Part shown: in pieces, positions 35,433 to 54,089 of the stretch | Position numbering within the stretch: position 1 is the first letter of the stretch | Layout of the letters: every line of letters begins with the position of its first letter | From: Betaproteobacteria bacterium | GTDB lineage: Bacteria > Pseudomonadota > Gammaproteobacteria > Burkholderiales > SG8-39 | DNA length: 64,000 nucleotides | Assembly (NCBI GenBank): GCA_947476535.1 | Contig: CANJRC010000001.1 | Coordinates: 60,023 to 124,022 of the forward strand | Direction of reading: 5' to 3' | Program-made: the position numbers and the translations under genes | Notes under the pieces: generated by a model | Told to the model about the DNA's origin: nothing | Seen by the model: the letters and a program-made list of their open reading frames with translations, nothing else | Databases searched by the model: none

Positions 35433-37064
35433 CTATGCCTCGATGGGCGCGAGCGCCGGGCGCCCCAGCACCATGTCGGCAGCCTTCTCGCCGATCATGA
35501 TTGCGGGCGCATTGGTGTTGCCGCCGATGATGCGCGGCATGATGGAGGCATCGGCCACCCTGAGCCCCTCGACCCCGCGCACGCGCAACTGGTTATCCAC
35601 CACCGCATCGTCACCCTGCCCCATGCGGCAGGTGCCCACCGGATGGAAGGCCGTGGCGCAACGATTACGCGCGTAGGCCTCAAGCGCTGCGTCGTCGCGA
35701 ACGCCCTCGCCGGGAAGGATCTCCGGGCCGCGCACCGGATCGAAAGCCGGGTCGGCGAGCATTTGGCGCGCGAGCTTCATGCCGTGCACCACGAGATCGA
35801 CGTCGGCGCGCGCACTGAGGAACTGCGGGTCGATCACGGGCGCTGCCAGCGGGTCGGCGCTCGCGATGGTGACGCGCCCGTGACTCTCGGGCCGCAGCAG
35901 CAGCACGATGATGCCGTAGCCATGCCCCTTGGCATTGGGGTTCTCCGGCGTGCGTCCGGCGGGCAGCAGGATGAACTGCAGGTCGGGACGATCGAGGTCG
36001 GGGCGCGAGCGAATGAAGCCGCCCGCATGCAGGATATTGTTGGCGAAGGCGCCGCTGCGCACAAACAAGTACTTGAGCACCTGCCCACCAAGCCAGGGCA
36101 GCTTCGCCGCTGTCAGCCCGTACGGGATCGTCGACTCGGTGACGTGGCCCACCTGCGTGATGAGGTGGTCCTGCAGGTTGCGGCCGACGCCAGGCAGATC
36201 GACCACGCTCGCAATGCCCAGGCGCGCGAGTTCTGCCGCCTCGCCGATGCCCGAGCGCAGCAGGATCGCCGGCGACGCGTAGGTGCCGCCGGCGAGGATG
36301 ATTTCGCGCCGCGCACGGATATGCCGACCGGCTTGCCGACCTCGGCTGCCCGTAGTCGCGTCGATCACGTCGATGCTCACGGCGCGCCGGCCCTCGAACA
36401 CGATCTTGTCGACGAGCACGCCGTTCTTCACCACGAGGTTCGGCCGCTGCAGCACTGGCCGCAGAAATGCGATGGACGTGGAATGCCGGCGCCCGCGCTT
36501 GATGGTGGCCTGGCGCCGGGAAAAGCCCTCCTGCGCCGCGCCGTTGAAGTCCTCGATCACCGGGTAGCCCATGCGCCGGGCCGCGGCGAACATCATGTCC
36601 ATCAGCGGCGAATACGATTCCACGTCGCACACGTTGAGCGGCCCGCCCTTGCCGTGATAGGGCGCGCCGAATTTCTCGTTGTGCTCGCTTCGAAGGAAAT
36701 ACGGCAGCACCTCGCGATACGACCAGCCCGGGTTGGCCGCCGCCGCCCACTCGTCGTAGTCGCCGCGGTGGCCACGCATGTACACCATGCCGTTGATGGA
36801 ACTGGTGCCGCCCAGGGTTTTTCCGCGCGGCGCATAGATGGACCGGTCGGCCGTGCCCGGCTGCGGCACAGTGTTGAAACACCAATTGAGCAGCGGGTGC
36901 GTCATCAGCGGCAGCATGCCCAGCGGCACGTGGATTAGCGGGCTCGTGTCCGGAGGTCCCGCTTCGAGCAGGCACACCCGGGTATTCGGGTCAGCCGACA
37001 GCCGGTTGGCGAGCACGCAGCCCGCCGAGCCCGCGCCCACAATCACATAATCGAAATCATCCAT
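35433..37064 (-). CDS. GMC family oxidoreductase, tandem paralog
   Basis: [23 protein letters not shown]. Collinear with 33799..35418. Confidence 0.9.
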   Translation of the reverse strand: MDDFDYVIVGAGSAGCVLANRLSADPNTRVCLLEAGPPDTSPLIHVPLGMLPLMTHPLLNWCFNTVPQPGTADRSIYAPRGKTLGGTSSINGMVYMRGHRGDYDEWAAAANPGWSYREVLPYFLRSEHNEKFGAPYHGKGGPLNVCDVESYSPLMDMMFAAARRMGYPVIEDFNGAAQEGFSRRQATIKRGRRHSTSIAFLRPVLQRPNLVVKNGVLVDKIVFEGRRAVSIDVIDATTGSRGRQAGRHIRARREIILAGGTYASPAILLRSGIGEAAELARLGIASVVDLPGVGRNLQDHLITQVGHVTESTIPYGLTAAKLPWLGGQVLKYLFVRSGAFANNILHAGGFIRSRPDLDRPDLQFILLPAGRTPENPNAKGHGYGIIVLLLRPESHGRVTIASADPLAAPVIDPQFLSARADVDLVVHGMKLARQMLADPAFDPVRGPEILPGEGVRDDAALEAYARNRCATAFHPVGTCRMGQGDDAVVDNQLRVRGVEGLRVADASIMPRIIGGNTNAPAIMIGEKAADMVLGRPALAPIEA

Positions 37065-39132: not shown

Positions 39133-39708
39133 TTACTTCGGGGACGCCTTGCCGAAGCGGCCGACGAAGGCCACGAGCTCGATATCGCGCAGCACGCTCA
39201 GGTTCTTCTCTGCGGCGAAGGCCTCTGCCTGCGGCGAGAGCTCACCCGCCGTCACGAAGATGCCGGCGCGCACATCACCTGACTCACGCGCCGACTGCAG
39301 CTCGCGCAGCGGCGCGACGCCTGCCTGGGTCACCTTCCAGCGCCGGCAGGCCACCAGCGTCACGTAACCCTGCTTGCGCAATTCCATGTCGACCGCGCCG
39401 CCGCGGGTCGCTGTCACCTCGTAGCCCTCGCGACGAAAGCCATCGGCGACCAGCGCCGAGAACTCGTCCCAGGACATGCCGCGCAGGTGTGCGAGCGTGG
39501 CCTCCACGCGCGCGGCCCCGGGCACCTTCATCTGCCGCCAGGCGCCGTAGATCGCGAGCGCCAGCCACGGAAAGGTGGACGCGGCCGCTGCCAGCGACGG
39601 CAGGAACAGGCGCGAGGCGAAGAAGAGACCCACCGCAATCAACAGGCTCGCCCACCAGGGCGAGCGCAGCAGGATGGAGAACAGTGAATCCTTGTGAGGC
39701 TTGAACAT
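39133..39708 (-). CDS. Membrane-anchored restriction-endonuclease-like (Mrr_cat) protein
   Basis: Two N-terminal TM helices followed by FEALV-type core (SWDEFSALVADGFRREGYEV...VDMEL...VACRRWK), the PD-(D/E)xK Mrr catalytic pattern. Confidence 0.65.
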   Translation of the reverse strand: MFKPHKDSLFSILLRSPWWASLLIAVGLFFASRLFLPSLAAAASTFPWLALAIYGAWRQMKVPGAARVEATLAHLRGMSWDEFSALVADGFRREGYEVTATRGGAVDMELRKQGYVTLVACRRWKVTQAGVAPLRELQSARESGDVRAGIFVTAGELSPQAEAFAAEKNLSVLRDIELVAFVGRFGKASPK

Positions 39709-39775: not shown

Positions 39776-40732
39776 CTACTCCGCCTTGTAACCGGTGGCG
39801 CGAATTGCGTCCGTCCAGAAGCGCACTTCCGCCTCGTACTGCTTCATCTGCTCTTCAGGCGTGGTGCCGAGCGCTTCGCCACCCGACGATTTGCGGATCT
39901 GCTCGACGATGGCCGGCGTCCTGACCGCTGCCGCCGCCTCGGCGGAAAGCTTGGCAATGATGTCGCGCGGCGTGCCCAGCGGTGCCCACAGTCCATAGTA
40001 GGCGGGCACCTCGAAATTCGGCAGCCCGACTTCCGGTGCGGCGGGCACGTCCGGCACGACCGCCACGCGCTTGGTGGCGAGCGCGAACAGGGCACGCACC
40101 TTGCCCGCCTGCAATTGGGCGGTGTAGGTCTGCGCCGATCCCATGCCCAGGTCCACTTCGCCGGAGAGCAGCGCGATCATGACCTGGGGACTGGACTTGT
40201 AGGGAATGCTGCGCGACTCGAAGCCCGCGCGATCGCCGAGAACCTTCATCGGAATGTCGACGATGGCGGCCGGCGAACCATGCTTGAGGCTGCCCGGGTT
40301 CGCCTTCGAATAGGCCACCAGTTCCTGCAGCGTGGTCACCGGGAGCGAAGACCGCACGACCAGGACCCATGGCGTGGACACCAACTGGGATACGGGCAGG
40401 AGGTCCTTGCCCGCATCCACCGCGTTCTCGCGCACGAACAGCGAATGGCTCTGCATCACGAGGCTGTAGAACAGCGTGTAGCCATCGGGCGAAGCACCGA
40501 CCACGGCCTTGGCGCCGATCCGCGAATTGGCGCCGGGCCGGTTCTCGACGATCACCGGCTGGCCCATGCGGCGCGTCAGCTCCTCGGCCACCGGCCGGAT
40601 GGTGACATCCACCACGGAGGCCGGCGGATTGCCGATGATGATGCGTACGGGCCTCGAGGGGTAGGTCTGCGCGAGCGCAGTGCCCGCCGACATGGCCACA
40701 GCAATCAGTGCCGCCGAAACAAGCGTCTTCAT
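39776..40732 (-). CDS. Bug-family (TctC-like) tripartite tricarboxylate transporter substrate-binding protein
   Basis: GGAGGAGG RBS. Signal peptide, then QTYPSRPVRIIIGNPPAS (Bug N-terminal signature). 318 aa. Confidence 0.88.
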   Translation of the reverse strand: MKTLVSAALIAVAMSAGTALAQTYPSRPVRIIIGNPPASVVDVTIRPVAEELTRRMGQPVIVENRPGANSRIGAKAVVGASPDGYTLFYSLVMQSHSLFVRENAVDAGKDLLPVSQLVSTPWVLVVRSSLPVTTLQELVAYSKANPGSLKHGSPAAIVDIPMKVLGDRAGFESRSIPYKSSPQVMIALLSGEVDLGMGSAQTYTAQLQAGKVRALFALATKRVAVVPDVPAAPEVGLPNFEVPAYYGLWAPLGTPRDIIAKLSAEAAAAVRTPAIVEQIRKSSGGEALGTTPEEQMKQYEAEVRFWTDAIRATGYKAE

Positions 40733-40883
40733 CTTGACCTCCTCCAGGGTTGCGACGCTCCCATCATATCCGGCGAGCATCGCCATCGCCACAGGATTTG
40801 CACTGCATCGCGTCATTGACTGCACCCCAACCGGTCTGCACAATCGGGCACCGCCCCACACCTTGGGGATGAGGAGAACCGCC

Positions 40884-42515
40884 ATGAAATTCGTGCTTCC
40901 CGTCGCCCCCATGCCGGTGTCGCAGGCTCGCCCGGCGCCACGCCCGCAACCGGGCAAACGGCTCAAAGTCGGCCTCCTGCACAACGGCAAGCCCAACGGC
41001 GACGCCATCATCCAGTCGGTGTTCGACGCGCTTGCCGTGCGCGGGATCGCGGCCGACTCGGTGTCGCATTCGAAGCCGCAGGCGGGCGAGCCGCTCTCGG
41101 CGGCCATGCTGGAGGAACTGAAGCACTGCGACCTGGTGGTCACTGCGCTGGCCAATTGAGGGGCCTGCACGTCGTGGAGTGTCCACGACAGCGTACAGAT
41201 CGAAAAAGCCGGTGTGCCCACGCTCACCTTTGTCACCGACGCGTTCGTCCCGCTAGCCGAGCGCGTCTCGGCAAGCCTCGACCTGCCGATGCCGCTCCTG
41301 CGCACGCAGGTGCTGCCGCATGCCATCTCCAGCGAAGAACGCAGCGCCGCCTACGAGGCGATGGCCGGGTACCAGGACAGCATCGAACAGGCGATCTTCG
41401 CACCGGTCGCCGCCGACGCCGCAGCAGATGGAGCGACGGCGGCAGCGCCAGCAAATGCGCCACTCGAACGCATCGAGATCGACGGTGACGAGGAGGCAGT
41501 AGCAGACCTCTACCGCAGCCGCGGCTGGCTGGACGGCCTGCCCATCGTGCCGCCCACGGAAGCCCGCGTCGAGCGCATGCTCGGGCCGCTCGCATCGCAG
41601 CGCCAGCGCCAGCTCGGGAAAGTGCCACCCAAGGGCCGGCCGCTGACGTTGGAGAGCCTTGCCGTGTGCGCTGTCCTGGCCGGCTGCGCGCCTGCAACCT
41701 TCCCGGTGGTGGTGGCCGCCGCGCGCGCCATGCTGCGGCCCGAATTCAACCTGCTCGGCATCAACACCACCACCAACGCCGCGGCACCGCTGCTGATCGC
41801 GAGCGGCCCCATCGCGAATGCGGTCGGCATCCAGGGTGGCAACGATGTGTTCGGCGCATTTCACCGCGCCAATATCACCATCGGCCGCGCGATGCGCCTC
41901 ATGATGATCGCGGTGGGCGACTGCCGCCCCGGCGACGGGGACATGGCCACCCAGGGCCAGGGCATGAAGGCCGGCATCTGCATCACCGAAAACACCTCGC
42001 CCTGGGAGCACCTGCACGTGGAGCTGGGCTGCCGAGCCGATGAAAGCACCGTGGCCGCAATCTCGGTGACGGCGCAGTTCAACCTGCTCGACTTCGCCAG
42101 CCGCAATGCCGATGACCTCTTGGGCATGATCGCGCGCACCATCTCGACGCCGGGCATGCAGAATGCGCAACTCGGCTACGGACCGGTGATCGTGTTCGGC
42201 ATCGAGCACGCGCGCATCCTCGCCGCGGCCGGCCTCACCAAGGCGGACGTCAAGCGCCGCCTCTTCGAGGAAGCCCGGCTGCCGCTCTCGGCCTTCAGCC
42301 CGGAGACGGTGGACGACGTGCTCAAGGTGCGCAGGCCGCAATGGGCCTTTGCCGAGCGCAACCCGTCGGGCGTGGTGCCCATGGCCGATGCACCCGGCGA
42401 CTTCACGCTGCTCGTGGCAGGCGGCGAAGGCCAGCACAGCGTGCTGTTGCCGACGTTCCTCGCGCCGCGGCCTGTGCTGGTGAAGGTGGGGAAGGACGGC
42501 CTCGGGGGCGAGTGA
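40884..42515 (+). CDS. Candidate selenoprotein P1: U-G-A-C redox module fused to a large uncharacterised domain (UGA 41157-41159 read as Sec, codon 92)
   Basis: ORFs 40680..41159 and 41214..42515 are in one frame and separated only by a TGA. GAGGAG lies 7 nt before ATG 40884. A paralog on the opposite strand has a TGA at the homologous site. A hairpin starts 11 nt after the TGA. Confidence 0.7.
41171..41189 (+). promoter_or_regulatory. Candidate bacterial SECIS hairpin for P1
   Basis: GTCGTGG-AGUGU-CCACGAC (7-8 bp stem). It begins 11 nt after the last base of UGA 41157-41159. Confidence 0.6.
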
Positions 42516-42537: not shown

Positions 42538-44310
42538 TCACACGATGCGCGCTGGCGGCTTCGCCTTCTCCAACAGCGCCTTCCACGCCTTCGGCAACGC
42601 CACGCGCCGGCTCACCGGCGCGCCCTGCTCGTGGTTGTTGATGTAGGCGCGCGACTGGTTGCGGCCGGGGTCTCCGGCGATGACGATGTTGATCCAGTCG
42701 GCGCGCATCAGCACCGGCACCAGGCGCTCGGGGTCCTTCGACTGCACGTACTCCTCGCCGATGGTGCCCTCGGCCACGCTGTCCTCGAGCTTCCAGCTGG
42801 CCGCCGACACATGCCAGTAGTAGCGCTCCAGCACGCGCGCCGGCAGCTTGATCGACTCGCGCAGGTGTTTGCGGATGTCGTCCTTCGTCCAGCCGTTGTC
42901 GGCGAACACCTTGGCCACCACCGGGCTCATCACGAGCAGCGGGTGCCAGTGCCCGAACACCGGCCCGGTGAAGGCGAAGGGCCCGTTGGCGCTGCCGAAG
43001 ATGGTGGTGATGAATTCGAGCTGCGTCTCGGGGGTGTCGCCGCCGCTGTAGATGGGCGGGCTGATGGCCACCACGCTTTGCACCGTCACCACGGTGTCGT
43101 CGCGCGTGAAGCCCCGGTCGACGCGGAACGGCTCCCACCCGATGGCCTTCACCGCCTCGTCGTTCTCGGCCAGCGCCACGTTGAACGACATGCCGATGGT
43201 GCCCTTGTCGGTCTGGCCCGGATAGCTGAGCAGCCCGGCGACATTGCGCATGAACATGCGCAGGAACCGCCCGATGGAGGAATTCGCCTGCGAGCCCACG
43301 CGCATGGCGCCGGCCTGGAAGTTGAATTCCAGTTCACGCACCAGTGAACCGCTGACGATGACCAGCGGCTCCCAGCCCGGCGTCGAGCCGGCATCCTGGA
43401 TGCGGAAGTGCGGATCGGAGATCGCCTCGGCAATCGCAATGAGAATGGGCATGTACTCGGGTCGGCAGCCGGCCATGACGGCGTTAACCGCCACATTCCA
43501 TACCGTGGCCTCGCGCAACTCCGGCAGCAGCACGCCGATCACCTCGTTCGGGTCGCGGTCGGTAAATGCGAGGAAGCGCTCGACGCGCTCGATGGTGGGC
43601 GGCACCACGGGCAGGCCGTCCGACCACAGGCGCTGGTGGAAATGGTCCTGCACTGCGTCGAAGCTGCCGGTAAAAACGATGTCGCGCGGCGCGGGCTCCG
43701 GCGCCTCCTTGACGAGCGCCTTGGGCGGCTCGCGCAAGCGCTCCATCAGCGCGGGGAAGAGGTTCTCGCGCACCTTGCGCTCGAACTCGTCCTGCGCATC
43801 GATGGTGATCACCCCGGGATATTCGGCAATGGCGATGTCCTGCACGCCGATGGCCTTGCCCGTGGCGCGCTGCATGCCCATGAAGGAGGTCTGCGTGATG
43901 GCCACGGCACGAGCGCCGCCCTGCTCTGCTGCCAGGTAAGCCCGCGACACGGCGGGCGTGCAGCTTCCTCAACCGGCGATGCCGACCACCGCCACGTCGG
44001 CCTTCACCTCCTGAAGAAGGCGCGGCAGGGCCGCGACCACTTCGGTTTCGGTGGCGCCATGGATGTTGCCGAAGGCATCGTGATCGACGAAGCGGATATC
44101 CGGGTACTCGCCCTTCAGCATGCCCTGCATGATGCGGTACATGTCGTCGCCCTTGCGCGCGTAGGTCCACACGAAGGCGACGGTTGCGCTGTTCAGGTCG
44201 ATGGGGCCTGCCTTGCGTGGCGGGGCGCTTCCCGCCGGTGCTGCCGGCCGCGAACGCCGCCCCAGCGGCCATACCACCTCGACATCGGATGCATTTTTCA
44301 ATGTACTCAT
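42538..44310 (-). CDS. Candidate selenoprotein P2: U-G-S-C redox module fused to the same large uncharacterised domain (UGA 43971-43969 read as Sec, codon 114)
   Basis: ORFs 43969..44322 and 42538..43950 are in one frame and separated only by a TGA. Read-through gives VAVVGIAG-U-GSCTPAVSRAYL. GGAG lies 6 nt before ATG 44310. A hairpin starts 11 nt after the TGA. Confidence 0.72.
43940..43957 (-). promoter_or_regulatory. Candidate bacterial SECIS hairpin for P2
   Basis: The minus-strand RNA reads GCCCGC-CGUGUC-GCGGGC. It begins 11 nt after the last base of the UGA. Confidence 0.6.
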
Positions 44311-44379
44311 TTTCGACTCCATCGCTTTGTCATTCGGACATTAACAGAATGATTGTTATCAACATTTCCCGCTGAATAT

Positions 44380-45849
44380 TCACCGTCCCTGCAACCCGTC
44401 TTCGGTCAGGAGGCGGTTGAGATCGCGCACATCCTTCACATCCTCCAGCCCGCGCACCATGCCGACGATCTCGTCCAGCACCTTCTCGGCCACCGGCACG
44501 CGCGCGCGTGCCGCGCACTCGCGGAATTTCTGCTCCACGCTGATCCACTGCATGCGGTTCTGCGGATGGCCATGGGGAAAGCGCTTCCACAGGCTCAGCG
44601 TCTTGCCGTTGGCGAGACGCATCTCCATGGTGACGGGCATGGGCAGCACGCGCCCTTCCGATTTCTCCGCAGCGGTGTCGTGCACCGGCAGCACGCGCTG
44701 CGCCATGGCGAGAATGTCGGCGTCCTTCAGGCCCTCGGCACCCACTTCATCCAGGCCCACGCGCCGGCGCACGATGGCGCTCGCCACCACGAAGGGCAGG
44801 CTGAACTGCGCATCCACCGAGGTCTTCGGGCGGCGCTTCTCGGCCACCGGCTGGCACACCTCGTCCCAGCTCTCGCGGCTGGCGATCTGCACCGTGACTT
44901 CCTCGATGTCCGACGGCTTGAGGTCGTGCTGCTCCACCAGTTCGAGCGCCGCGCTCACCGATGCATGCGTGATCTTGCAGCAGGGGTAGGGCTTGATGCT
45001 GATCTGGTCGACCTGGAAATTCGTGCCCAACCCATTGAGCAACTGGTTGCGGTCGTACTCGCCGCCGCAGAAGGCATTGAGGTAGCCGAACTTTCCCTCC
45101 AGCATGCGCCGCCCGCCGGTGATGCCCTTCTTGGCCAGCATGGCCCCGAGCGCCCCGTCGCGCGCCGACAGCCCCTGCTGCACGCGCACGATCAGCACGC
45201 CCTCCTGGATGCCCTGCTGGTTGCCGGCCATCTGGCTGTAGGCATTGCCGAGCGCATCCAGCGTCAGGTCGCGCGACAGTCGCTCCAGCTTCGCCACGAT
45301 GGCAGCCGCCCCGAAGGTGCCGCACTGGTAGGTGTAGGAGAACCAGCGCGGCTTGTGCAGCGCGCCCGCCACATGATAGGTGGGCGTCAGGCCGAGCCGG
45401 CACACCAGCTCCATGCCGGCGGTGCAGGCGGTGAGCAGGTCCGCGCCACTGACGGGCCCCTTCCAGTCCGCCCACGCCAGCGCCGTCGGGATGCACGACA
45501 CCGATGGGTGCAGCATGGCCATCTCGTGCACGTCGTCGAGTTCGAGCGCGCGCGCCATGGTGGTGTTGACGATGGTGGCATCGAGAAAGCTCACCCGCTG
45601 CGGAAAGCCGACGAGCCGGCTTTGTGCATGCCCGCCCCACTCGCCCACCTGCTCGACCAGCGCCGCGCTGCCTTCTGCGGCGGTGCCGGCCAGCGTCGCA
45701 CCCAGCGTGTCGAGGAAGGACTGCTTGACGTGCTCGCGCGTTTCGGCCGGGATATCGGCGAGGCGCAGTCCCTGGAGAAAATCGACGAGCGTGTCTTCCA
45801 GGGTCTTGCCTGCGGACAGATCGCTCATGGCAGCCGGGCCGCTCATCAC
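44380..45849 (-). CDS. MmgE/PrpD family protein (2-methylcitrate-dehydratase-like)
   Basis: 489 aa. LVDFLQGLRLADIPAETREHVKQSFLDTLGATLAG N-terminal pattern of the family. The start (GTG 45849 or ATG 45846) overlaps the Bug gene stop. Confidence 0.8.
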   Translation of the reverse strand: MMSGPAAMSDLSAGKTLEDTLVDFLQGLRLADIPAETREHVKQSFLDTLGATLAGTAAEGSAALVEQVGEWGGHAQSRLVGFPQRVSFLDATIVNTTMARALELDDVHEMAMLHPSVSCIPTALAWADWKGPVSGADLLTACTAGMELVCRLGLTPTYHVAGALHKPRWFSYTYQCGTFGAAAIVAKLERLSRDLTLDALGNAYSQMAGNQQGIQEGVLIVRVQQGLSARDGALGAMLAKKGITGGRRMLEGKFGYLNAFCGGEYDRNQLLNGLGTNFQVDQISIKPYPCCKITHASVSAALELVEQHDLKPSDIEEVTVQIASRESWDEVCQPVAEKRRPKTSVDAQFSLPFVVASAIVRRRVGLDEVGAEGLKDADILAMAQRVLPVHDTAAEKSEGRVLPMPVTMEMRLANGKTLSLWKRFPHGHPQNRMQWISVEQKFRECAARARVPVAEKVLDEIVGMVRGLEDVKDVRDLNRLLTEDGLQGR

Positions 45850-46832
45850 TGCGCGCGAATGCCGATGGCCTTGACCAGCTTGTCGTTGTCCGCGAGTTCG
45901 CGCTTGATCAGGGCGTCGAACTCGTCGGGCGTGAGGGTGAAGGGCTCCGCGCCCACTTTGAGCATACGCTCCTTCAAGTCAGTGGTGGCCAGCACCTTGA
46001 CGATTTCCTGCTGCAGCCTCAGCACCACTTCGCGCGGCGTCTTGGCCGGCGCCATGAGTCCCGTCCACACGCTGTAGCCCGCGCCCGGCACGCCGGCTTC
46101 CTCGATGGTGGGCACGCCCGGCAGCGAGGCCGAGCGCTTGGAGGACATGGCCAGCGGAATGAGCGCGCCATCCTTGATCATCGACTGCACCGAAGCCACG
46201 GCGGTATACACATAGTCCACGCGCCCGGCGAAGACTTCGGTTACGCCGTCGGTGGTGCTCTTGAACGGGATGTGCAGCACGTCGATGCCGGCTGCGATGC
46301 GGAACTTCTCCGCGCCCAGGTGCGCCGAGGTGCCGACGCCCGCCGAGGCGAAGGTGAGCGACCCGGGCTTCGCCTTTGCGCTGGCCACCAGTTCCTGCAC
46401 GCTGCGAATGCCCTTGGACTTGGCGATCACCATCACCAGCGGCAGCTCCGCGAGTGGGGTTACGCCGACGAAGTCGCGCAGCGTGTCGTAAGGCACGTTG
46501 GGCGTGAGCACCTGCAGGATGGAATGCGACGACGAATTGGCCAGCAGGGTGTAGCCGTCGGCGGGCGACGTCGCCACGAAGGCCGAGGCGATGGCGCCGC
46601 CGGCGCCGGTCTTGGTCTCGTGGATGAACGACTGCCCCAGGCTCTTGGCCAGTTCGTCGGTGACCAGGCGCGTGGCGATGGCTACGCCGCTGCTCGGGGC
46701 GTAGGGCACGATGACGCGCACCGGCTTGCTGGGCCAGGCCTGCGCGAAGGCCGGGCTCGAACAAACGACGCCGGCCACGACTCCCGCAACAACCAGCACG
46801 AACACGCTGCCGACACGATTCACGATGCGCAT
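45846..46832 (-). CDS. Bug-family (TctC-like) substrate-binding protein
   Basis: GGAGGAGGG RBS before ATG 46832. Signal peptide, then QAWPSKPVRVIVPYAPSSG. Confidence 0.88.
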   Translation of the reverse strand: MRIVNRVGSVFVLVVAGVVAGVVCSSPAFAQAWPSKPVRVIVPYAPSSGVAIATRLVTDELAKSLGQSFIHETKTGAGGAIASAFVATSPADGYTLLANSSSHSILQVLTPNVPYDTLRDFVGVTPLAELPLVMVIAKSKGIRSVQELVASAKAKPGSLTFASAGVGTSAHLGAEKFRIAAGIDVLHIPFKSTTDGVTEVFAGRVDYVYTAVASVQSMIKDGALIPLAMSSKRSASLPGVPTIEEAGVPGAGYSVWTGLMAPAKTPREVVLRLQQEIVKVLATTDLKERMLKVGAEPFTLTPDEFDALIKRELADNDKLVKAIGIRAQ

Positions 46833-46896
46833 GATGCCCTCCTCCACAGACAAACTCATGGCCATCAAGCCTAGCCGACGATGGCGCCTTGCCCCT

Positions 46897-48927
46897 TTAT
46901 ACCGCAATGCCAGCCAGGTGCCCTTCCCGGATGGCCACGTTCAGGAAGCGCGGCGAGTTGGCGTCGCCGACGACGCGCACGCTGGCACCCTTGGCCGACA
47001 AGGCGTCGTAGATGTCGCGATTGGAGCGGTTGGGCGACACGAACACCACGGTGTCGGCCGGCACCGTCACCAGTTGTCCCGGCTTGGCGTCAGGCAGCTT
47101 GATGAAGGTCGGCGCGATCACCGCCGTGCCTTTACCGATGGACACGGCGCGCCAGCGCGGATGGAAGCTGAAGTTGCCGCGTGCCGACAGGCGCGACAGC
47201 GCCGGCTCCGACATCGCCGCCATCTCCACCCCCGGGCCGAAGGAAATATGGCGCGTGACGAAGGTGATGGCCATGCCGCGCGCCTGCAGGGTCTCGGCCA
47301 CGCCGATGGCCTCGAAATGCCCGGTGTCGTCGATCACCAGCGCGGTCTTGCCGGTGATGCGCCGCTCGTCCTGGAACACATCCCACGACGAGAGCACATG
47401 CGGCTGCTCGAGCCCGGTGATGGGCTCGCCGGGATTGGTGACCTGCACGCCGTCCATGCGCGGCGTGGAGCCGGTGGCGACGATGACTTCGTCGGCGCCT
47501 TCTTTCGCCACGTCATCTGCATCCATGTAGGTGGACAGGCGCACCTCCACGCCCAGCCGATACACCTCCTGCTCCAGCCACACGATGGCATCGCGCATGG
47601 TCGCCCGCGTCGGCGCCTTCGAGGCGATCTTCACGACGCCGCCAAGCGCCGGTTCCGCCTCCACCAGCGTCACCTTGTGGCCGCGCGTGGCAGCCGCCCG
47701 CGCCGCCTCCATCCCCGCGGGGCCGCCGCCGATCACCAACACGCGCTTGGGTTTGGCCACCGGCGTGAGCATGTGGTCGCCGCTGGTGCGCTCCCAGCCC
47801 GCACCGGCGTTGACGGTGCAGGCCACGCGCGCGCTGGGGCCCCGCGAACCGGCGAGGCAGCCCTGGTTGCAGCCGATGCAGGGGCGCACGCGCTCCGGGT
47901 GTCCCGCCATGGTTTTCTTGACCAGGTCCGGGTCGGCGATGTGGGCGCGCGACAGCGCCACGATGCTGGCATCGCCTGCTCGAATCACGGCATCCGCCTC
48001 CTCCAGCGTGCGAAAGCGCCCGGTCACCAATGTCGGCACCTTTTTCGCGCGTCGCGTCACCGGCACGCTGGTCGGCAATTCGTAACCCATGGGTTCATGC
48101 ATGCCCGCCACCAGGCGCGGGAAGGCCTGGTAGCTGCCCAGCGACACGTTGAATAGGTCGGCAAGGCCCTTGGATTCGATGAGCTCCAGGATGCGACCGT
48201 TGTCCTCGACGCCCGAGCCGCCCGCCGCATCGTCGGGCGCGAGGCGCACGCCGACAGCGAAGTCCTTCGACACGGTGGCGCGGATCGCCGCCAGGCATTC
48301 CAGCGTGAAGCGCGCGCGGTTCTCGAAGGAACCGCCGTAGTCGTCCTCGCGCTTGTTGGTGTTGGGCGACAGGAACTGCTGCGGCAGGTAGCCGTGCGCT
48401 GCGTGCAGTTCCACGCCATCCAGGCCCCACTCCTCGCATTGCTTCGCCGTCATGGCATAGGCACCGACGATCTCGTCGATCATCATCTTGGTCATGGCGA
48501 TCGGCACCACGCCCGCCTCGGGGCTGGGCTGGTCTGAGGCCGACCACGGCGGCGAACCGTCGATGGGCAGCGAGTGATGGCCGCCGTGCCAGAGCTGCTG
48601 GAAGCACTTCATGCCGGTGGGACGCAATTTGGCCATCATGCGCGGGTAGCCCTCGGCATGCACCGGGTTGAAGACGTTCAGCGAGGCCGGCGTGGTGCGA
48701 TGCACGCCGAGGATCTCGAAAATGGTCAGGCCGACGCCGCCCTCGGCGCGCCGAAAGTGGAATTCGGTCAGGTCATCGAATGAATACAGCGCAAGGCGCG
48801 TGCCATGCGCGGTGCGCGCCACGCGGTTGCGCAACTGGATGGGACCCACCTGGATGGGCGTCAAGACATGCGTCAGTGCCACTGGTTTTCCTCCTGGATC
48901 AGTGATGTTGCGGGCGCCCGCGGACAC
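46897..48927 (-). CDS. NADH:flavin oxidoreductase (Old Yellow Enzyme domain) fused to FAD/NAD(P)-binding domain, 2,4-dienoyl-CoA-reductase-like
   Basis: HAAHGYLPQQFLSPNTNKREDDYGGSFENR (OYE), a CIGCNQGC Fe-S motif, and VLVIGGGPAGMEAA. GTG start at 48927 is tentative. Confidence 0.8.
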   Translation of the reverse strand: MSAGARNITDPGGKPVALTHVLTPIQVGPIQLRNRVARTAHGTRLALYSFDDLTEFHFRRAEGGVGLTIFEILGVHRTTPASLNVFNPVHAEGYPRMMAKLRPTGMKCFQQLWHGGHHSLPIDGSPPWSASDQPSPEAGVVPIAMTKMMIDEIVGAYAMTAKQCEEWGLDGVELHAAHGYLPQQFLSPNTNKREDDYGGSFENRARFTLECLAAIRATVSKDFAVGVRLAPDDAAGGSGVEDNGRILELIESKGLADLFNVSLGSYQAFPRLVAGMHEPMGYELPTSVPVTRRAKKVPTLVTGRFRTLEEADAVIRAGDASIVALSRAHIADPDLVKKTMAGHPERVRPCIGCNQGCLAGSRGPSARVACTVNAGAGWERTSGDHMLTPVAKPKRVLVIGGGPAGMEAARAAATRGHKVTLVEAEPALGGVVKIASKAPTRATMRDAIVWLEQEVYRLGVEVRLSTYMDADDVAKEGADEVIVATGSTPRMDGVQVTNPGEPITGLEQPHVLSSWDVFQDERRITGKTALVIDDTGHFEAIGVAETLQARGMAITFVTRHISFGPGVEMAAMSEPALSRLSARGNFSFHPRWRAVSIGKGTAVIAPTFIKLPDAKPGQLVTVPADTVVFVSPNRSNRDIYDALSAKGASVRVVGDANSPRFLNVAIREGHLAGIAV

Positions 48928-48936
48928 CCGCCTTGG

Positions 48937-50790
48937 CTACTCCGGAAACCCCGCCTTCAGCAGGGCATCGCGATAGTGCGCGAGATCGCCCTCCTGCTTG
49001 TAGTGCAATGAGGGCAGGACATGCTGGCGCAGGTTCGTTCCCGGCACGCGTGCAAGGGCCTCACGCACGCTCGACGCTGCGGCATTCCCATCGCCCAACG
49101 CGGCATGGCATGCAGCCAGCATGGCCATGTGCTGCTCGTTCCTGGCACTGATGCGTTGCACCGCTTCAATGGCCTCGACGTAGCGCTTCGCGCCGAACAA
49201 TGCCCGCCCCAGGTGCGACCAGAAGCGCTCGGGGTGATAGGGATTGAGCCGCATGGCCTTCCGGACCCACTCGCTGCCCTCCTCGCCACGCCCCAGCCAG
49301 GTGAGGAGCTCGCCCTGCTGCACCACGATCAGGTCGTCATTGGGATTGAGGCTCAGCCCGCGCTCCTGGTGATAGCTCGCCTTGTCCCAGTTGTCACGCG
49401 ACAGCGACACGGCCGCCATCACGCGATGCACGTCGCTGTCCTTGTCGTCGAGGGACAGCGCGATGGCCAATTCCCGCTCGACCTCCGCGTGGGTGGCTTC
49501 GCGGTCCTCGCACCAGCCCAGCACCCAGGACTGCCCTAGGATGCAGGCGCGCCAGGCATGCGCATGCGCATGCGCATAGCGAGAATCGAGCTCTGTGGCG
49601 CGCGCGATCAGGCGCTGCGCCTCGGCATTGTCTTCGCGCCGCGAACGATGGTGCAACACCTTGGCCGTGACCACGCATTCGTAGGCGGCCATGTTGTCCG
49701 TGGTCTTGCGCGCCGCGCGCTCGTGCTCCGATGCTTCCACGCGACCTGGCAGCACCGAAACAATGGCGCGGGTCATCTCATCCTGCAGGTCGAAGATGTC
49801 CTCGAGTTCGCGGTCGTAGCGCTCGGCCCATATGTGGCGATCAGCCTCGGCCTCGATCAGCTGGGCGGTGATGCGCAGGCGGTTGCCGGCGCGGCGCACG
49901 CTGCCCTCGAGCACGTACTGCACGTTGAGCGCGCCTGCGACCTTGCGCACGTCCACCGCCTGGCCCTTGTACTTCATCGAGGTGTTGCGCGATATGACGA
50001 ACAGCTCGTGAAAGCGCGACAGCTCGGTGAGAATGTCCTCGGTCAGGCCATCGACGAAGAACTCCTGCTCGGCCACTCCGCTCATGTTGGCGAAGGGCAG
50101 CACAATGATGGAGGGCTTGGCTCGGCCGGAAGCGGAGGCCGCAGCCTGGCTGGTCGGAGCCGCCACTGCGGCGCGTCCCGCCGCGGGCGTGGCCGCCGAC
50201 ATGCCCGCCGCCGCTTCTTCCTGTGCCGGCCTGGCTTCGGCCGCACCGCGCTCGCGCACCCGGTACACACGGATCGGCAGCGGGATGTTCTTCAACGCGT
50301 GCTCGCCGATGTCCTCGAACGCGAAGTCGAGCTTGCGATGCACCTCGTCGTGCACCTTGCCGGTGATGCAGATGCCGCCGGCTTCGGCCAGCGCCTCGAT
50401 GCGCGCCGCGATGTTCACGCCGTCGCCGTAAATCCGCTCGTCCTCGGCGACGATATCCCCCAGGTTCACGCCGATGCGAAACGCCATGCGCCGCGATTCC
50501 GGGAAATTGGCATTGCACTCGCGCAGCTGCACCTGCACCTCGGCCGCCGCCGCCACCGCATCGACCGCGCTGCCGAACTCGGCCAGCATGTTGTCGCCCG
50601 GCGAATCCACCACGCGGCCGTGATGCGAGGACACGATTTTGCCGACCAGCGTGCGGCAGGTGGACAGGATGCGCACCGTGGCGACATCGTCATCGGCCAT
50701 CAGGCGGCTGTAGCCCGCGGCATCCGCGCTCAGGATGGCGGCGAGGCGCCGTTGTACGCGCGGTCCCTGGTCCTGTTCGCGGTCCGGCAT
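48937..50790 (-). CDS. Class III adenylate/guanylate cyclase domain protein with central TolB-N-like and C-terminal TPR regions
   Basis: RRLAAILSADAAGYSRLM...GDNMLAEFGS...GVNIAARIE cyclase core, followed by ILPFANMSG...FVDGLTEDI and TPR-like helices. Alternative GTG start at 50823. Confidence 0.8.
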   Translation of the reverse strand: MPDREQDQGPRVQRRLAAILSADAAGYSRLMADDDVATVRILSTCRTLVGKIVSSHHGRVVDSPGDNMLAEFGSAVDAVAAAAEVQVQLRECNANFPESRRMAFRIGVNLGDIVAEDERIYGDGVNIAARIEALAEAGGICITGKVHDEVHRKLDFAFEDIGEHALKNIPLPIRVYRVRERGAAEARPAQEEAAAGMSAATPAAGRAAVAAPTSQAAASASGRAKPSIIVLPFANMSGVAEQEFFVDGLTEDILTELSRFHELFVISRNTSMKYKGQAVDVRKVAGALNVQYVLEGSVRRAGNRLRITAQLIEAEADRHIWAERYDRELEDIFDLQDEMTRAIVSVLPGRVEASEHERAARKTTDNMAAYECVVTAKVLHHRSRREDNAEAQRLIARATELDSRYAHAHAHAWRACILGQSWVLGWCEDREATHAEVERELAIALSLDDKDSDVHRVMAAVSLSRDNWDKASYHQERGLSLNPNDDLIVVQQGELLTWLGRGEEGSEWVRKAMRLNPYHPERFWSHLGRALFGAKRYVEAIEAVQRISARNEQHMAMLAACHAALGDGNAAASSVREALARVPGTNLRQHVLPSLHYKQEGDLAHYRDALLKAGFPE

Positions 50791-51129: not shown

Positions 51130-51597
51130 ATGGCTGCATCCAACGACAACCCCATCCCCGCGCCCAACATGCGCGACTGGCAGCACGTGCACCTGGCACG
51201 CTACCTCGCCACCGACGGCGAAGACGGTTACTGGTGGCAGTCGCCACGGGCGGGCGTCCCGGGCCCGGTGCCCACACTCATCCTCACCACCACCGGGCGG
51301 CGCTCGGGCACGCAATACCTCAACCCGCTCATCTTCGGCGAGCACGAGGGGCGCTGCGTCATCGTGGCCTCGAGGGGTGGCGCACCGGCGCATCCGTCCT
51401 GGTACGTCAATCTCTCCGCGGTGCCCGAGGTCGGCGTGCAGGTGAAGGCGCGCAAGTTCCGCGCCCGCGCGCGCACCGCCAGTGGCCCAGAGCGCGCAAC
51501 GCTGTGGGCCCTCATGGTCAAGGTCTATCCCTCCTACGCCGAATACCAGGAGCGAACCGAGCGCGAAATCCCGGTGATAGTGCTCGATCCGCTCTAG
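51130..51597 (+). CDS. Deazaflavin-dependent nitroreductase/quinone-reductase family (DDN-like, DUF385) protein
   Basis: LTTTGRRSG....PL..........VASRGGA..HP.WY.NL pattern and C-terminal IPVIVLDP. Confidence 0.75.
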   Translation: MAASNDNPIPAPNMRDWQHVHLARYLATDGEDGYWWQSPRAGVPGPVPTLILTTTGRRSGTQYLNPLIFGEHEGRCVIVASRGGAPAHPSWYVNLSAVPEVGVQVKARKFRARARTASGPERATLWALMVKVYPSYAEYQERTEREIPVIVLDPL

Positions 51598-51621
51598 CCA
51601 TCCCGCACAGGAATGCTCCTA

Positions 51622-51897
51622 ATGCCACTCTATGTATATGCCCCCATCTCCGGCCAGTGCGACCAATGCCATGGCCACTTCGAAGTCATGCAACGCCTGG
51701 CCGAGGACAGACTGACGCAATGCCCGACCTGCGCGAAGCCCTGCGAGCGGCAGATCTGCGCGGTGCGCCTGGGCGGGAAATATTCGACCTCGGATTCCGC
51801 GGTCAAGGCGGCCGGCATGACCAAGTACCGCAAAGCCGAGTCCGGCGTGTATGAACGCGTGGTCGGCAACAGCGGGCCGAAGATACTCAATCGGTAG
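51622..51897 (+). CDS. FmdB-family zinc-ribbon protein (CxxC_CxxC_SSSS type)
   Basis: MPLYVYAPISGQCDQCHGHFEVMQRLAEDRLTQCPTCAKP matches the MP.Y.Y.C..C...FE........C..C signature. Confidence 0.8.
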   Translation: MPLYVYAPISGQCDQCHGHFEVMQRLAEDRLTQCPTCAKPCERQICAVRLGGKYSTSDSAVKAAGMTKYRKAESGVYERVVGNSGPKILNR

Positions 51898-51900
51898 TGT

Positions 51901-51931
51901 GACCGCGCGGCTTGCTACGCAAGCTCAGCCG
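51901..51931 (+). repeat. REP-like palindrome, copy 3 (GACCGCGCGGCTTGCTACGCAAGCTCAGCCG)
   Basis: Lies 3 nt after the fmdB-like stop. The inner stem carries a compensatory C-G to T-A change relative to copies 1 and 2. Confidence 0.75.
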
Positions 51932-51982
51932 AAATGGCGCCACGCAGTCAAGGAACGTCAAGCCCCGCACAAAAAAATTTGT

Positions 51983-52014
51983 GCAGGTGCAAAAAAACAA
52001 CCTGCCCTTTTTTT
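51983..52014 (+). terminator. Rho-independent terminator candidate
   Basis: GCAGGT (51983-51988) pairs with ACCTGC (52000-52005) and is followed by CC and T7 (52008-52014). An overlapping palindrome GCACAAA-AAAA-TTTGTGC lies at 51967-51984. Confidence 0.55.
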
Positions 52015-52200
52015 AAGCAACCCAGATCATGGCCCGTCACATGCGGTGGTTGCGGGGTGGCGGCAATTCGGCGGCCCGAGTTGTCCACAGAAGCTGTGGG
52101 TAATTTCCGCGGACGCCACCGGCAATAGTGCTTGCGCGGCAGAAAAAAATCGGCTAAAGCGACAGCCCGCCAATCGCAATAAGGGCCGCCAACGCGGCGC

Positions 52201-52545
52201 TCATTTCAGCAATTTTGCCAGCGCATCCGGATCGAACCCCACGTGTACCAGCGCGCCTTTTTCAATCACCGGGCGCTTGATCAGGCTGGTGTTGTCGAGC
52301 ATCAGCGCGATGGCGTCCGCCTGCGTGCTGACCGCCTGCTGGGCCGGGGTGAGCTTGCGCCAGGTGGTGCCGCGCGTGTTTACCAGCGTCTTCCAGCCCA
52401 CTTTCTTGCACCAATCGGCGAGCCGCGCGCAATCCACGCCCTCCTTCTTGTAGTCATGGAAGCGATAACCAATGCCTTCCTTGTCCAGCCAGGCAAAGGC
52501 CTTCTTCATGGTGTCGCAATTCTTGATGCCGTAGATGGCGATCAT
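52201..52545 (-). CDS. ArsC/Spx-family reductase-like protein (YffB type)
   Basis: MIAIYGIKNCDTMKKAFAWL N-terminus with a single Cys. 114 aa. Confidence 0.8.
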   Translation of the reverse strand: MIAIYGIKNCDTMKKAFAWLDKEGIGYRFHDYKKEGVDCARLADWCKKVGWKTLVNTRGTTWRKLTPAQQAVSTQADAIALMLDNTSLIKRPVIEKGALVHVGFDPDALAKLLK

Positions 52546-53525
52546 CGGGAATCTCCGCTGTCCTGGTCATGCTCGATTGCCGCACTGGCTTGGTCGACTT
52601 CGTTGTTGCGGCCTTTCCTGGCCTCCACCTTGGCCTTCCTTGCTTCGGCGGCTTGTTGCGCGAGCAGGTCTGCATCCATCATCTCGCGACGGGTGTGCGG
52701 CGTCTCGAGGCTGATGCGCCCGAGCGTTCCGCCGCGATAATCCTGCAACAGCACCAGCGAAGCCTTGCCGAAGTCCGGCTCGCCGCCACGTCCGCGCATG
52801 CCGCGCTTCTTCGCGATGGCCTCGATGAGCGCAATGCCGTCCATGCCCTTGAGGGAGAATCCGTAGCGCGCCGCGAGCAGACTCGGGTAGCGCGCCAGCA
52901 GCAAGTCAGCCAGGTAGGCCGCCACCTCGTCGTCGATGTAGGCATTGCGGCCGATGGAGTGGCTGGCCGCCAGCATCAGGCCGTCGCTCGCATGCTTGAT
53001 GGCCGGCCACATCAGCCCCGGCGTGTCGACCAGCTCCATGCGGTCGCTCAGGTCGTATCTTCCCTGTTGTTTCGTGATGGCCGGCTCGTCGCCGGTGAGC
53101 GCCACGCGCCGCTTGAGGAGCGCGTTGATCAGCGTGGACTTGCCGACGTTGGGAATGCCCATCACCAGCATGCGCAACGGCTTCAACGGGCTGTCGCGGT
53201 GCGGCGCCAGCGCCCCCGCCATGCGCGTGACCTTGGCCGCGTCGCCCGGCTTCTTGCACGACAGCGCGACGGCCGTCACGCCCTTTTCCGCGCCAAAGGC
53301 ACGCAGCCAGGCCGCGGTGGCATCAGGGTCGGCGAGGTCGGCCTTGTTGAGCACCTTGAGGCAGGGTCGCTGCCGCTTGGCGCGCAGCTCGGCAATCATC
53401 GGGTTGGTGCTGGCGCCCGGCAGGCGTGCGTCGAGCACCTCGATGACCACGTCGGTGGTCGCCATGGTCTCGGCCGCCTTGCGGCGCGCTGCGGTCATGT
53501 GGCCGGGATACCAACCGATTGCCAT
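52542..53525 (-). CDS. ylqF: Ribosome biogenesis GTPase YlqF/RbgA
   Basis: WYPGHMTAARRK start. Circularly permuted GTPase motif order: NKADL (G4) precedes GIPNVGKSTLIN (G1) and DTPG (G3). Confidence 0.88.
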   Translation of the reverse strand: MAIGWYPGHMTAARRKAAETMATTDVVIEVLDARLPGASTNPMIAELRAKRQRPCLKVLNKADLADPDATAAWLRAFGAEKGVTAVALSCKKPGDAAKVTRMAGALAPHRDSPLKPLRMLVMGIPNVGKSTLINALLKRRVALTGDEPAITKQQGRYDLSDRMELVDTPGLMWPAIKHASDGLMLAASHSIGRNAYIDDEVAAYLADLLLARYPSLLAARYGFSLKGMDGIALIEAIAKKRGMRGRGGEPDFGKASLVLLQDYRGGTLGRISLETPHTRREMMDADLLAQQAAEARKAKVEARKGRNNEVDQASAAIEHDQDSGDSR

Positions 53526-53627
53526 GGACTGGGGAACTCCGAAGTGAAGTAACTACACTTCTTTTACCATGCAGGCGCCCGGCACGGCACAATGATTCCG
53601 GGACACCGACATCCAGGAGAAAAATCA

Positions 53628-54089
53628 ATGACTGACACACCGATCACGCCGGCACCCCGACTCAACGACTGGCACGTGGACCATCTGCGGCGCTACCTCG
53701 CGAGCAACGGCGCCGATGGCCATGTCTGGACATCGCCGCGACCGGAGGCCCCGAACCCGGTGACCATCCTGTTGCTCACGACGACGGGCAGGCGCTCCGG
53801 GAAGCCGTTTACATTTCCGCTTATCTACGGCGCATACGGCAACAGCTTCGTCATCGTGGCCTCCAAGGGCGGCGCCGCGGAACACCCGGGCTGGTACCTC
53901 AACCTGCACGCCAACCCCGCGGTAGAAGTGCAGGTACTGGCCCGGCGCTTCAAGGCCCGCGCCCGCACTGCGGCAGGCGAAGAGCGCGCGAAACTCTGGA
54001 AGCAGATGGCGGATTTCTTCCCGCCCTATGTCGAATACAAGGAGAAGACCGGCCGCGAAATACCGGTCGTGGTGCTGGATCCGCAATAA
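53628..54089 (+). CDS. Deazaflavin-dependent nitroreductase family (DDN-like) protein, paralog of 51130..51597
   Basis: CAGGAGA RBS. Collinear with the first copy (LLTTTGRRSGKPF...VASKGGAAEHPGWYLNL...IPVVVLDP). Confidence 0.75.
   Translation: MTDTPITPAPRLNDWHVDHLRRYLASNGADGHVWTSPRPEAPNPVTILLLTTTGRRSGKPFTFPLIYGAYGNSFVIVASKGGAAEHPGWYLNLHANPAVEVQVLARRFKARARTAAGEERAKLWKQMADFFPPYVEYKEKTGREIPVVVLDPQ

Follow-up and report, generated by a model that had tools for sequence, protein, structure and literature searches.

Two neighbouring genes, P1 and P2, on a 64 kb stretch of betaproteobacterial DNA (contig CANJRC010000001.1, positions 60,023 to 124,022; the whole stretch that was analysed, ~65% G+C, is called the window) encode what are, judged from their sequences, true selenoproteins. 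Both are cytoplasmic proteins of the UGSC family, and the locus is a new member of this known but functionally uncharacterised family. P2 is the last gene of a tightly packed run on the minus strand, in which it follows genes for a cyclase, a flavoenzyme reductase, a periplasmic solute-binding protein and an MmgE/PrpD protein. A first-pass annotation, made from the DNA letters alone, had read this run as an uptake-plus-conversion pathway for an unsaturated carboxylic acid in which the selenoproteins supply a redox step. Compared across its relatives, the run is not conserved as a unit. On balance we lean towards a reading in which P1 and P2 are selenocysteine (Sec)-dependent thiol-relay reductases set in a lineage-specific catabolic patchwork.

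Selenocysteine decoding in P1 and P2

The two genes are convergent, with 22 nt between them. Their coding regions, Sec codons, putative Sec insertion sequence (SECIS)-like hairpins and domains are as follows (aa, amino acids).

42538–44310, minus strand: P2, a 590-aa selenoprotein with an in-frame TGA at 43969–43971
43969–43971, minus strand: Sec codon UGA of P2, motif U-G-S-C, with Cys in homologues
43939–43958, minus strand: SECIS-like hairpin of P2, GCCCGC-CGUGUC-GCGGGC, 13 nt past the UGA, from its fold and homologues
~43747–44277, minus strand: UGSC domain of P2 (PF24696)
42541–43698, minus strand: C-domain of P2, no Pfam family
40884–42515, plus strand: P1, a 543-aa selenoprotein with an in-frame TGA at 41157–41159
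41157–41159, plus strand: Sec codon UGA of P1, motif U-G-A-C, with Cys in the homologue P0258
41171–41189, plus strand: SECIS-like hairpin of P1, GUCGUGGA-GUG-UCCACGAC, 11 nt past the UGA, a predicted fold
~40899–41369, plus strand: UGSC domain of P1 (PF24696)
41505–42512, plus strand: C-domain of P1, no Pfam family

The UGA of P2 aligns with the Cys of CGSC or CGTC in 11 of 12 full-length homologues and with Ser in the other (P0010). A search with P2 found at least 3,796 relatives, which fall into two groups by length: those of ~580 aa span 97% of P2 and have Cys at the TGA position, and those of ~465 aa span its last 78%, their gene calls restarting past the TGA. The relatives of P1 were Sec forms of 433–440 aa with the 5′ part cut, together with full-length P0258 (54–55% identity), which has CGSC at the Sec position. 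A Chloroflexi homologue of P1 type also has UGA at this position, and the P1 orthologue on a metagenomic contig that carries P0003, a close relative of P2, is a split gene (91 + 440 aa). Where gene calls are split in relatives, the parts join in frame and the coding sequence is conserved on both sides of the UGA.

A set of 79 species-representative loci of the family was assembled, and their open reading frames (ORFs) were clustered and annotated with Pfam. Fifty family members in this set have TGA at the Sec codon, followed in every case by GGN-AGN-UGC-AC and then by the hairpin GCCCGC-CGUGUU-GCGGGC. The Arg codon of the TPAVxR peptide is CGG in 47 of 47 Sec forms and in 0 of 4 Cys forms, these four being the only Cys forms with the peptide available for comparison; an Arg codon other than CGG disrupts the hairpin stem. 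When the hairpin helix was imposed on the alignment, 81% of cells were paired, compared with 34–63% in slid controls, and double changes were seen at three pairs, the hairpin having been set by eye, its pairs counted, and the covariation test being confounded by protein-coding constraint. RNAalifold, applied to the post-UGA region, picked a shifted 3-bp helix instead. The P1 hairpin is unlike that of P2 in sequence, and its spacing from the UGA is nearly equal (11 vs 13 nt).

The window also contains a gene for a 755-aa oxidoreductase–SelD fusion (24587–26854, minus strand), 14 kb from the selenoprotein genes. It scored 386.6 bits with TIGR03169 (cut-off 310) and 234.9 bits with TIGR00476, selD (cut-off 125), and the Pfam domains agree. 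It is a pyridine-nucleotide-disulfide oxidoreductase–SelD fusion of the ‘Ndh-SelD’ type of marine metagenomes. Its presence implies that the genome uses selenium. The tRNA and Rfam scans of the whole window were empty, no tRNA-Sec being found there, and neither SelA nor SelB was seen among the window ORFs scanned. The alignment of UGA with Cys in full-length homologues, the hairpins and SelD together bear out the claim of the first-pass annotation that P1 and P2 contain Sec.

Family membership and domain architecture

With Pfam PF24696, P1 scored 118 bits and P2 57.9 bits (cut-off 25). With NCBIfam NF041046 the scores were 104.4 and 37.6 bits, under the equivalog cut-off of 125 bits; P1 and P2 are thus domain-level members of the family and not equivalogs of its stand-alone protein. 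The family motif is U/C-G-x-C with interchange of Sec and Cys: UGSC in P2, UGAC in P1 and CGSC or CGTC in homologues. Both proteins have an N-terminal UGSC domain and a C-domain of ~390 aa, and P1 is a divergent paralogue of P2 (23% identity overall, 29% across the C-domains).

Structures were modelled with AlphaFold2 for a Cys homologue, P0014 (55% identical to P2), and for the P2 C-domain alone. The full-length model of P0014 had a predicted local distance difference test score (pLDDT) of 92.5 and a predicted template modelling score (pTM) of 0.92; the pLDDT of the C-domain model was 90.2. In the P0014 model the N-domain (residues ~13–190) has an alternating β–α arrangement, in which the redox motif lies at the start of a helix and is flanked by a strand on its other side, and its best matches in the PDB were the flavodoxin domains of flavodiiron proteins. 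A flavodoxin-like α/β fold is predicted for the UGSC domain. The thioredoxin fold suggested previously (PMC2398784) is unsupported, as the model matches flavodoxin-like domains.

No Pfam or NCBIfam family was found for the C-domain, and permissive Pfam E-values gave nothing consistent. A profile search of the PDB found no relative of it by sequence, only a spurious match to Hsp104. A profile built from both window C-domains matched 5,735 clusters at 50% identity (E ≤ 1e-3), among them C-domains that stand alone (~350 aa), fusions with UGSC and long proteins in which the C-domain occurs twice. Invariant features of the domain are W-x-D-G-L-P-x-x-P-P-T, A-G-C-x-P, N-x-x-I-G-R-x-x-R and further Arg residues. 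C-domains of the A-type have one invariant Cys, that of A-G-C-x-P, and those of the B-type have two.

The gene run and its conservation

The other features of the run and of the region beside P1 are given here.

48937–50790 (or to 50823), minus strand: class III cyclase with TPR repeats (PF00211 + TPR), first in the run
46897–48882 (longest-ORF start 48927), minus strand: FadH/OYE-type two-domain flavoenzyme, the reductase (PF00724 + PF07992)
45846–46832, minus strand: TctC/Bug periplasmic solute-binding protein, Bug-a (PF03401, 204.6 bits)
44380–45849, minus strand: MmgE/PrpD protein with N and C domains (PF03972 + PF19305)
44362–46897, minus strand: 2.5 kb segment with Bug-a and PrpD that is missing in the relative L087, from blastn
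44311–44379, minus strand: AT-rich spacer 5′ of P2, 38% G+C, from composition
40733–40883, no strand: divergent control region of Bug-b and P1, 151 bp, with one sigma-70-like site at 40816–40844 (plus strand)
39776–40732, minus strand: second TctC/Bug protein, Bug-b, divergent from P1 (PF03401, 179.6 bits)

When the ORFs and Pfam assignments were re-derived, the five minus-strand ORFs between 42538 and 50823 and their families were recovered as the first-pass annotation had listed them. The distances it had given were also reproduced on re-measurement for the reductase and Bug-a (64 nt), the overlap of Bug-a and PrpD (4 nt, GTGA), PrpD and P2 (69 nt) and the divergent region of Bug-b and P1 (151 nt). 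Its 9-nt gap between cyclase and reductase needs revision, since it presumes the longest ORF (GTG 48927). The most likely start of the reductase is GTG 48882, because an AGGAGG box lies 8 nt 5′ of it and the gene calls for its orthologues in two close relatives (L084 and L087, 661 aa) begin at the equivalent codon. The gap is therefore likely to be 54 nt, and the run lies on one strand with gaps of 54 (or 9), 64, −4 and 69 nt. The cyclase–reductase spacer contains a perfect 12-nt palindrome, GCGGGCGCCCGC, at 48910–48921.

The 69-nt spacer before P2, at 38% G+C in a window of 65% G+C, is on account of this composition a candidate promoter or operator that would serve only P2. It includes TTGATAACAATCATTCTGTTAATG and is conserved in L087. 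Scans with promoter and terminator consensus sequences gave counts at chance level, and co-transcription of the run is a possibility. The sigma-70-like site before P1 is likewise a single consensus match of a frequency expected by chance, and is only a lead.

The reductase matched PF00724 (185 bits) and PF07992, corresponding to an FMN domain and an FAD/NAD(P)H domain, and its translation contains the 4Fe-4S cluster motif C-x2-C-x3-C-x11-C (CIGCNQGC...C). The closest solved structures were 6l6j, 2-naphthoyl-CoA reductase, trimethylamine dehydrogenase and FadH; no NCBIfam equivalog threshold was reached. For Bug-a the closest structures were Bug27 and BugD. Neither TctA nor TctB was present among the window ORFs scanned with Pfam; the two TctC genes are therefore orphan Bug genes and not part of a full tripartite tricarboxylate transporter (TTT) system. 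The MmgE/PrpD protein matched only the family domains PF03972 and PF19305 and no NCBIfam equivalog, and its best PDB relatives, the Bacillus subtilis IRG1 homologue and IDS epimerase, reached only E ~ 1e-28. As there is no equivalog-level match and the PDB relatives are distant, an assignment as 2-methylcitrate dehydratase (PrpD proper) was rejected.

Close relatives of the run vary in gene content. On the contig carrying P0003, a protein 79% identical to P2, the order OYE–TctC–PrpD–P2 is kept and P1 and TctC follow, paired as in the window. The synteny of this contig with the window extends from the methyltransferase and GMC genes as far as the GTPase and binding-protein genes. No cyclase is present on it, and the reductase comes first, with a divergent F420H2_quin_red gene 219 bp before the reductase; its flanking genes are also found in the window at 51130–53525. 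In L084 a cyclase of 89% identity occupies the same site as in the window and is followed by the reductase (a fragment, 96% identical). In L087 (~91% identical at the nucleotide level) the order is cyclase–reductase–P2: by blastn, its positions 1–3656 correspond to 50574–46898 of the window and 3688–5521 to 44361–42528, the TctC–PrpD segment being missing. The AT-rich spacer is retained there, directly past the reductase gene and before P2. Homology of both L080 and L087 with the window (about 91–93% identity) ends 10 nt past the P2 stop, at 42528, and P1 is not beside P2 in either; type IV pilus genes take its place in L080. A gene with an Mrr_cat restriction-endonuclease domain (39133–39708, minus strand) lies directly past Bug-b and is found in the same place on the P0003 contig.

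Relatives of P2 at 65–78% identity have neighbours that differ from those in the window: TctC–PrpD–NMT1–ABC in one case, a 797-aa dehydrogenase-like protein and TctC in a second, SnoaL and SBP_bac_1 in a third, and SBP_bac_1 genes with an ABM protein in a fourth. An OYE homologue was found within 10 kb at 0 of the 79 other family loci. A PrpD homologue was present at ~10 of the 79, only once as an immediate neighbour. The neighbourhood is thus largely not conserved outside the closest relatives of P1 and P2, which is an outcome that the first-pass annotation had named as speaking against its reading. A fixed five-gene pathway, as first proposed, does not hold, given the loss of the cyclase on the P0003 contig, the loss of TctC–PrpD in L087 and the lack of OYE at the other family loci. 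The idea of an uptake-plus-conversion set survives in part: the OYE–TctC–PrpD–P2/P1–TctC block on the P0003 contig supports it, and the varying gene content among relatives speaks against it.

One alternative is that the run came together by chance in a gene-dense catabolic region, its genes being transcribed independently and functionally unrelated, and that the selenoproteins have no functional connection with the genes for the cyclase, the reductase, Bug and PrpD. We regard this as possible but rather unlikely. It fits the indels of the cyclase and of Bug–PrpD between close relatives, the break of synteny just past P2 in L080 and L087, the AT-rich spacer and the absence of OYE from, and rarity of PrpD as an immediate neighbour at, the other family loci, and the window is crowded with paralogous oxidoreductases and binding proteins. 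What argues for a real association is that the reductase and P2 stay together in the window, in L087 and on the P0003 contig despite the other indels, so that their adjacency outlasts all three rearranged versions; that the block on the P0003 contig is kept at 79% P2 protein identity; and that the genes are co-oriented with gaps of no more than 69 nt.

Neighbours and fusions across the family

The 99 immediate neighbours of family members at the 79 loci were scanned. Those found most often were TctC (13), SBP_bac_5 (8) and a ~310-aa Pyr_redox_2 protein (7), and there were three AhpC/TSA proteins and two thioredoxins. DctP, NMT1 and SBP_bac_1 also occur, so that binding proteins from five transporter families adjoin the selenoproteins and their relatives. 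This frequency and variety suggest that the substrate is imported, small and probably anionic. CoA-transferases, acyl-CoA dehydrogenases, short-chain dehydrogenases/reductases (SDRs) and amidohydrolases recur near family loci.

The Pyr_redox_2 protein is a thioredoxin reductase (TrxR)-like flavoprotein with a CxxC motif, encoded at 11 of the 79 loci. Several Alpha- and Betaproteobacteria have the gene order Sec UGSC-fusion, UGSC-less paralogue, TrxR-like gene (L013, L015, L016, L025, L026 and L030); positions 10001–13913 of L030 are an example of this three-gene module. A second divergent paralogue is directly adjacent in 11 loci and lies within 10 kb in ~8 more; the name ‘divergent paralogue’ is used here without further division because a split by bit score into P1-type and P2-type is ambiguous for short UGSC-less proteins. 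Several divergent paralogues per genome and per locus are found, for example in L002, L003, L017 and L040.

In a clade of gut bacteria with ~650-aa forms, the family members adjoin thioredoxin-fold (AhpC/TSA-thioredoxin-like), DsbD_TM/CcdA and Fer4 proteins. Four loci in metagenome-assembled genomes of gut bacteria and anaerobes such as Treponema and Bacillota (L060, L062, L069 and L073) have ~650-aa members beside thioredoxin-fold, DsbD_TM/CcdA and Fer4_5 membrane proteins. This context hints that the ~650-aa members of gut bacteria and other anaerobes may work outside the cytoplasm and be supplied by a CcdA relay.

Gene fusions are the clearest pointer to a redox role. In P0333 the C-domain is fused to FeThRed_B, the catalytic chain of ferredoxin:thioredoxin reductase (FTR), and in P0429–P0440 it is fused to a Redoxin/AhpC-TSA domain with CPTC replacing UGSC. 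Single polypeptides in which two C-domains flank one UGSC domain also exist (P0354, P0287 and P0289, the last with a Cu_amine_oxidN1 domain as well). The proposal that the Sec proteins supply a redox step is supported as far as a redox role goes, which the TrxR-like, thioredoxin-fold and CcdA neighbours and the redoxin and FTR-β fusions strongly suggest.

The same partners could mean that the UGSC-fusion proteins have a general role in thiol redox or antioxidant defence, like that of peroxiredoxin or methionine sulfoxide reductase (Msr) in peroxide, disulfide or sulfoxide repair, in which case the neighbours in the window would be irrelevant. The AhpC/TSA, thioredoxin and CcdA neighbours and the redoxin fusions are in keeping with such a role; the conserved neighbourhood includes, farther out, an ArsC/Spx-family gene, and reviews place most prokaryotic selenoproteins of this kind among the redox or antioxidant proteins (PMC13188914). 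We nevertheless consider this explanation doubtful. Solute-binding proteins of five transporter families are the commonest immediate neighbours, CoA-transferases, acyl-CoA dehydrogenases, SDRs and amidohydrolases recur nearby, and multiple divergent paralogues per genome and locus are what is typically seen for catabolic enzymes specialised by substrate and not for housekeeping repair.

Proposed function

The decoding signals, family membership and architecture of P1 and P2, the variability of the run and the redox partners and fusions of the family are directly supported, and a Sec-dependent thiol-relay reductase can be outlined from them. The UxxC site would be a built-in selenol/thiol electron carrier, reduced by a disulfide reductase dependent on pyridine nucleotide or ferredoxin. 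From it, reducing equivalents would pass to a small anionic substrate held on the C-domain. P1-type and P2-type C-domains would probably act jointly as a hetero-oligomer, as suggested by the adjacent paralogues, by the polypeptides with two C-domains and by the recurrence of the P1/P2 pair on the P0003 contig. The FadH/OYE-type NAD(P)H enzyme, the only flavoprotein that stays beside P2 in this lineage, may be the electron donor or may catalyse a neighbouring step on the same substrate. A carboxylate would be supplied by the two orphan Bug proteins, and the MmgE/PrpD protein could provide an accessory conversion step. The cyclase would be a recently acquired neighbour outside the pathway. In this scheme we infer which way electrons flow, that a hetero-oligomer forms, that the reductase gene is connected and what kind of substrate is used. 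Uptake and conversion of a carboxylate with a Sec-dependent redox step are compatible with the data; the more specific ‘unsaturated carboxylate’ of the first-pass annotation is a guess.

Several points weigh against this scheme. There is no TrxR-like gene in the window, and because no OYE homologue occurs at the other family loci the reductase may simply happen to lie beside P2. Its AT-rich spacer suggests that P2 has a transcript of its own, and the separation of P1 from P2 in L080 and L087 weakens the case for an obligate complex of the two. As paralogues of Bug and PrpD are very numerous in Burkholderiales, their proximity carries little weight. A catalytic role of the C-domain is not established, since no Pfam family covers the domain and its fold matches are marginal (E 4.5e-4, template modelling (TM) score 0.23–0.31), and all of the steps rest on sequence, context and models.

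The cyclase was also considered as a regulatory operon head that senses a signal through its TPR or middle region and controls, or is co-expressed with, the catabolic genes through cAMP. It matched PF00211 with 44.6 bits (cut-off 21.9) and TPR_2, and consists of a catalytic domain, a middle region and TPR repeats. By eye, the domain keeps both metal-binding Asp residues and the Asn/Arg pair, but an Asp is found before the GD motif at the usual position of the substrate-specifying Lys, so that activity is uncertain. A regulatory role would agree with its position on the same strand 54 (or 9) nt before the reductase with no terminator-like site between, and with the retention of the cyclase–reductase adjacency in L084 and L087. 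It is made improbable by the absence of the cyclase from the syntenic P0003 contig, by the doubtful activity and by the huge expansion of the family: there are >8000 homologues, hundreds of them at ~65% identity, and paralogues at 65–68% identity adjoin unrelated genes, for example ADH/PALP and ThiS/ThiG. On the same grounds of synteny and unrelated contexts elsewhere, the cyclase was rejected as a member of the pathway.

That the in-frame TGAs are true stops, making P1 and P2 pseudogenes or split genes whose products would be a short UGSC piece and a separate, large C-terminal protein, is very improbable: automatic gene callers do split every such homologue into products of ~110 and ~465 aa, and tRNA-Sec, SelA and SelB were not found in the window, but frame and sequence are conserved on either side of the TGA, Cys stands at exactly its position in homologues, TGA and hairpin are kept in 50 independent species, SelD is in the window and a curated (seleno)protein family exists (NF041046, PF24696).

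If the thiol-relay reading is extended from this locus to the family as a whole, which is spread over Proteobacteria, Chloroflexi, Actinobacteria and gut anaerobes, then the proteins with UGSC and C-domain, their UGSC-less paralogues and the TrxR-like flavoprotein might form a widespread and so far unrecognised class of selenol/thiol-dependent reductases acting on imported small organic acids, analogous to glycine or proline reductase but with a catalytic fold unrelated to theirs. In the window the FadH/OYE enzyme would replace the TrxR-like donor. This extension is put forward tentatively.

The window as a whole is a dense catabolic island. It contains three FAD_binding_2 flavoprotein paralogues (5725–7401, 7445–9142 and 13169–14866), three GMC oxidoreductase paralogues (33799–35433, 35433–37064 and 56513–58138) and a 1274-aa hydantoinase A/B fusion (58161–61985). 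Two F420H2_quin_red paralogues (51130–51597 and 53592–54089, both plus strand) flank ArsC/GTPase genes. This deazaflavin-dependent nitroreductase family, typical of high-G+C Actinobacteria, looks unusual for a genome of betaproteobacterial type.

Comparison with known systems

Zhang and Gladyshev described UGSC-containing proteins in 2007–2008 from genomic and metagenomic data, and a ‘UGSC/Unknown_1 fusion’ was already mentioned in 2008 (PMC1976440, PMC2398784). The fused architecture is therefore probably not new, and Unknown_1 may be the present C-domain. In reviews up to 2026 the family appears with no function assigned to it (PMC9312934, PMC13188914), and the literature searched contained neither a functional study of the family nor a characterised cluster of the present composition. 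P1 and P2 share with the family (PF24696/NF041046) the domain, the U-G-S/A-C motif, the interchange of Sec and Cys and the SECIS hairpin. They differ from NF041046, a stand-alone protein of ~147 aa, in having the extra domain of ~390 aa, and their predicted fold is flavodoxin-like and not thioredoxin-like as in PMC2398784. The locus and its relatives add concrete partners, namely the second paralogue, the TrxR-like reductase, the redoxin and FTR fusions and the binding proteins, the last of which could reveal the substrate. These partner and fusion patterns are leads, not results. Two Sec copies beside two Bug proteins in one organism offer an experimental entry point; the proposed operon is less important, because its composition shifts between close relatives.

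The top Foldseek match of the C-domain in the PDB was class I (Fe-S) fumarate hydratase (6uqn and 7xky_A; E 4.5e-4 to 1e-3, probability 0.8–0.9). That enzyme has conserved dicarboxylate-binding Arg residues (R173, R421 and R471 variants appear in the entry titles), and the C-domain also has several Arg residues. The TM scores were low (0.23–0.31, with a root-mean-square deviation of 17–19 Å), and one invariant Cys in the A-type or two in the B-type leave no site for a three-Cys cluster. Homology with class I fumarate hydratase was not established, given the low TM scores and too few Cys residues.

Clusters for catabolism linked to Bug or TTT proteins in Burkholderiales resemble the window in having orphan TctC beside MmgE/PrpD, oxidoreductase paralogues and high G+C; the difference is the two selenoproteins embedded here. 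Relays from TrxR and thioredoxin or from CcdA and TlpA to Msr and ArsC employ the same kinds of electron-supply partners as lie beside, or are fused to, the UGSC family. The acceptor domain of the UGSC family is unrelated to MsrA/B or ArsC, and its solute-binding neighbours point to an imported metabolite and not to protein repair.

The glycine/sarcosine/betaine and D-proline reductases combine a Sec redox motif with a substrate-specific partner subunit and a dedicated, co-encoded TrxR-type reductase, and they reduce an imported small acid. P1 and P2 matched no GRDB or PrdB profile in Pfam or NCBIfam at E-values up to 5, no pyruvoyl-forming subunit is evident, and the hosts of UGSC proteins are largely aerobic soil and freshwater bacteria. 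The likeness to the glycine and proline reductases is one of logic, that is, of how P1 and P2 may work, and not of membership.

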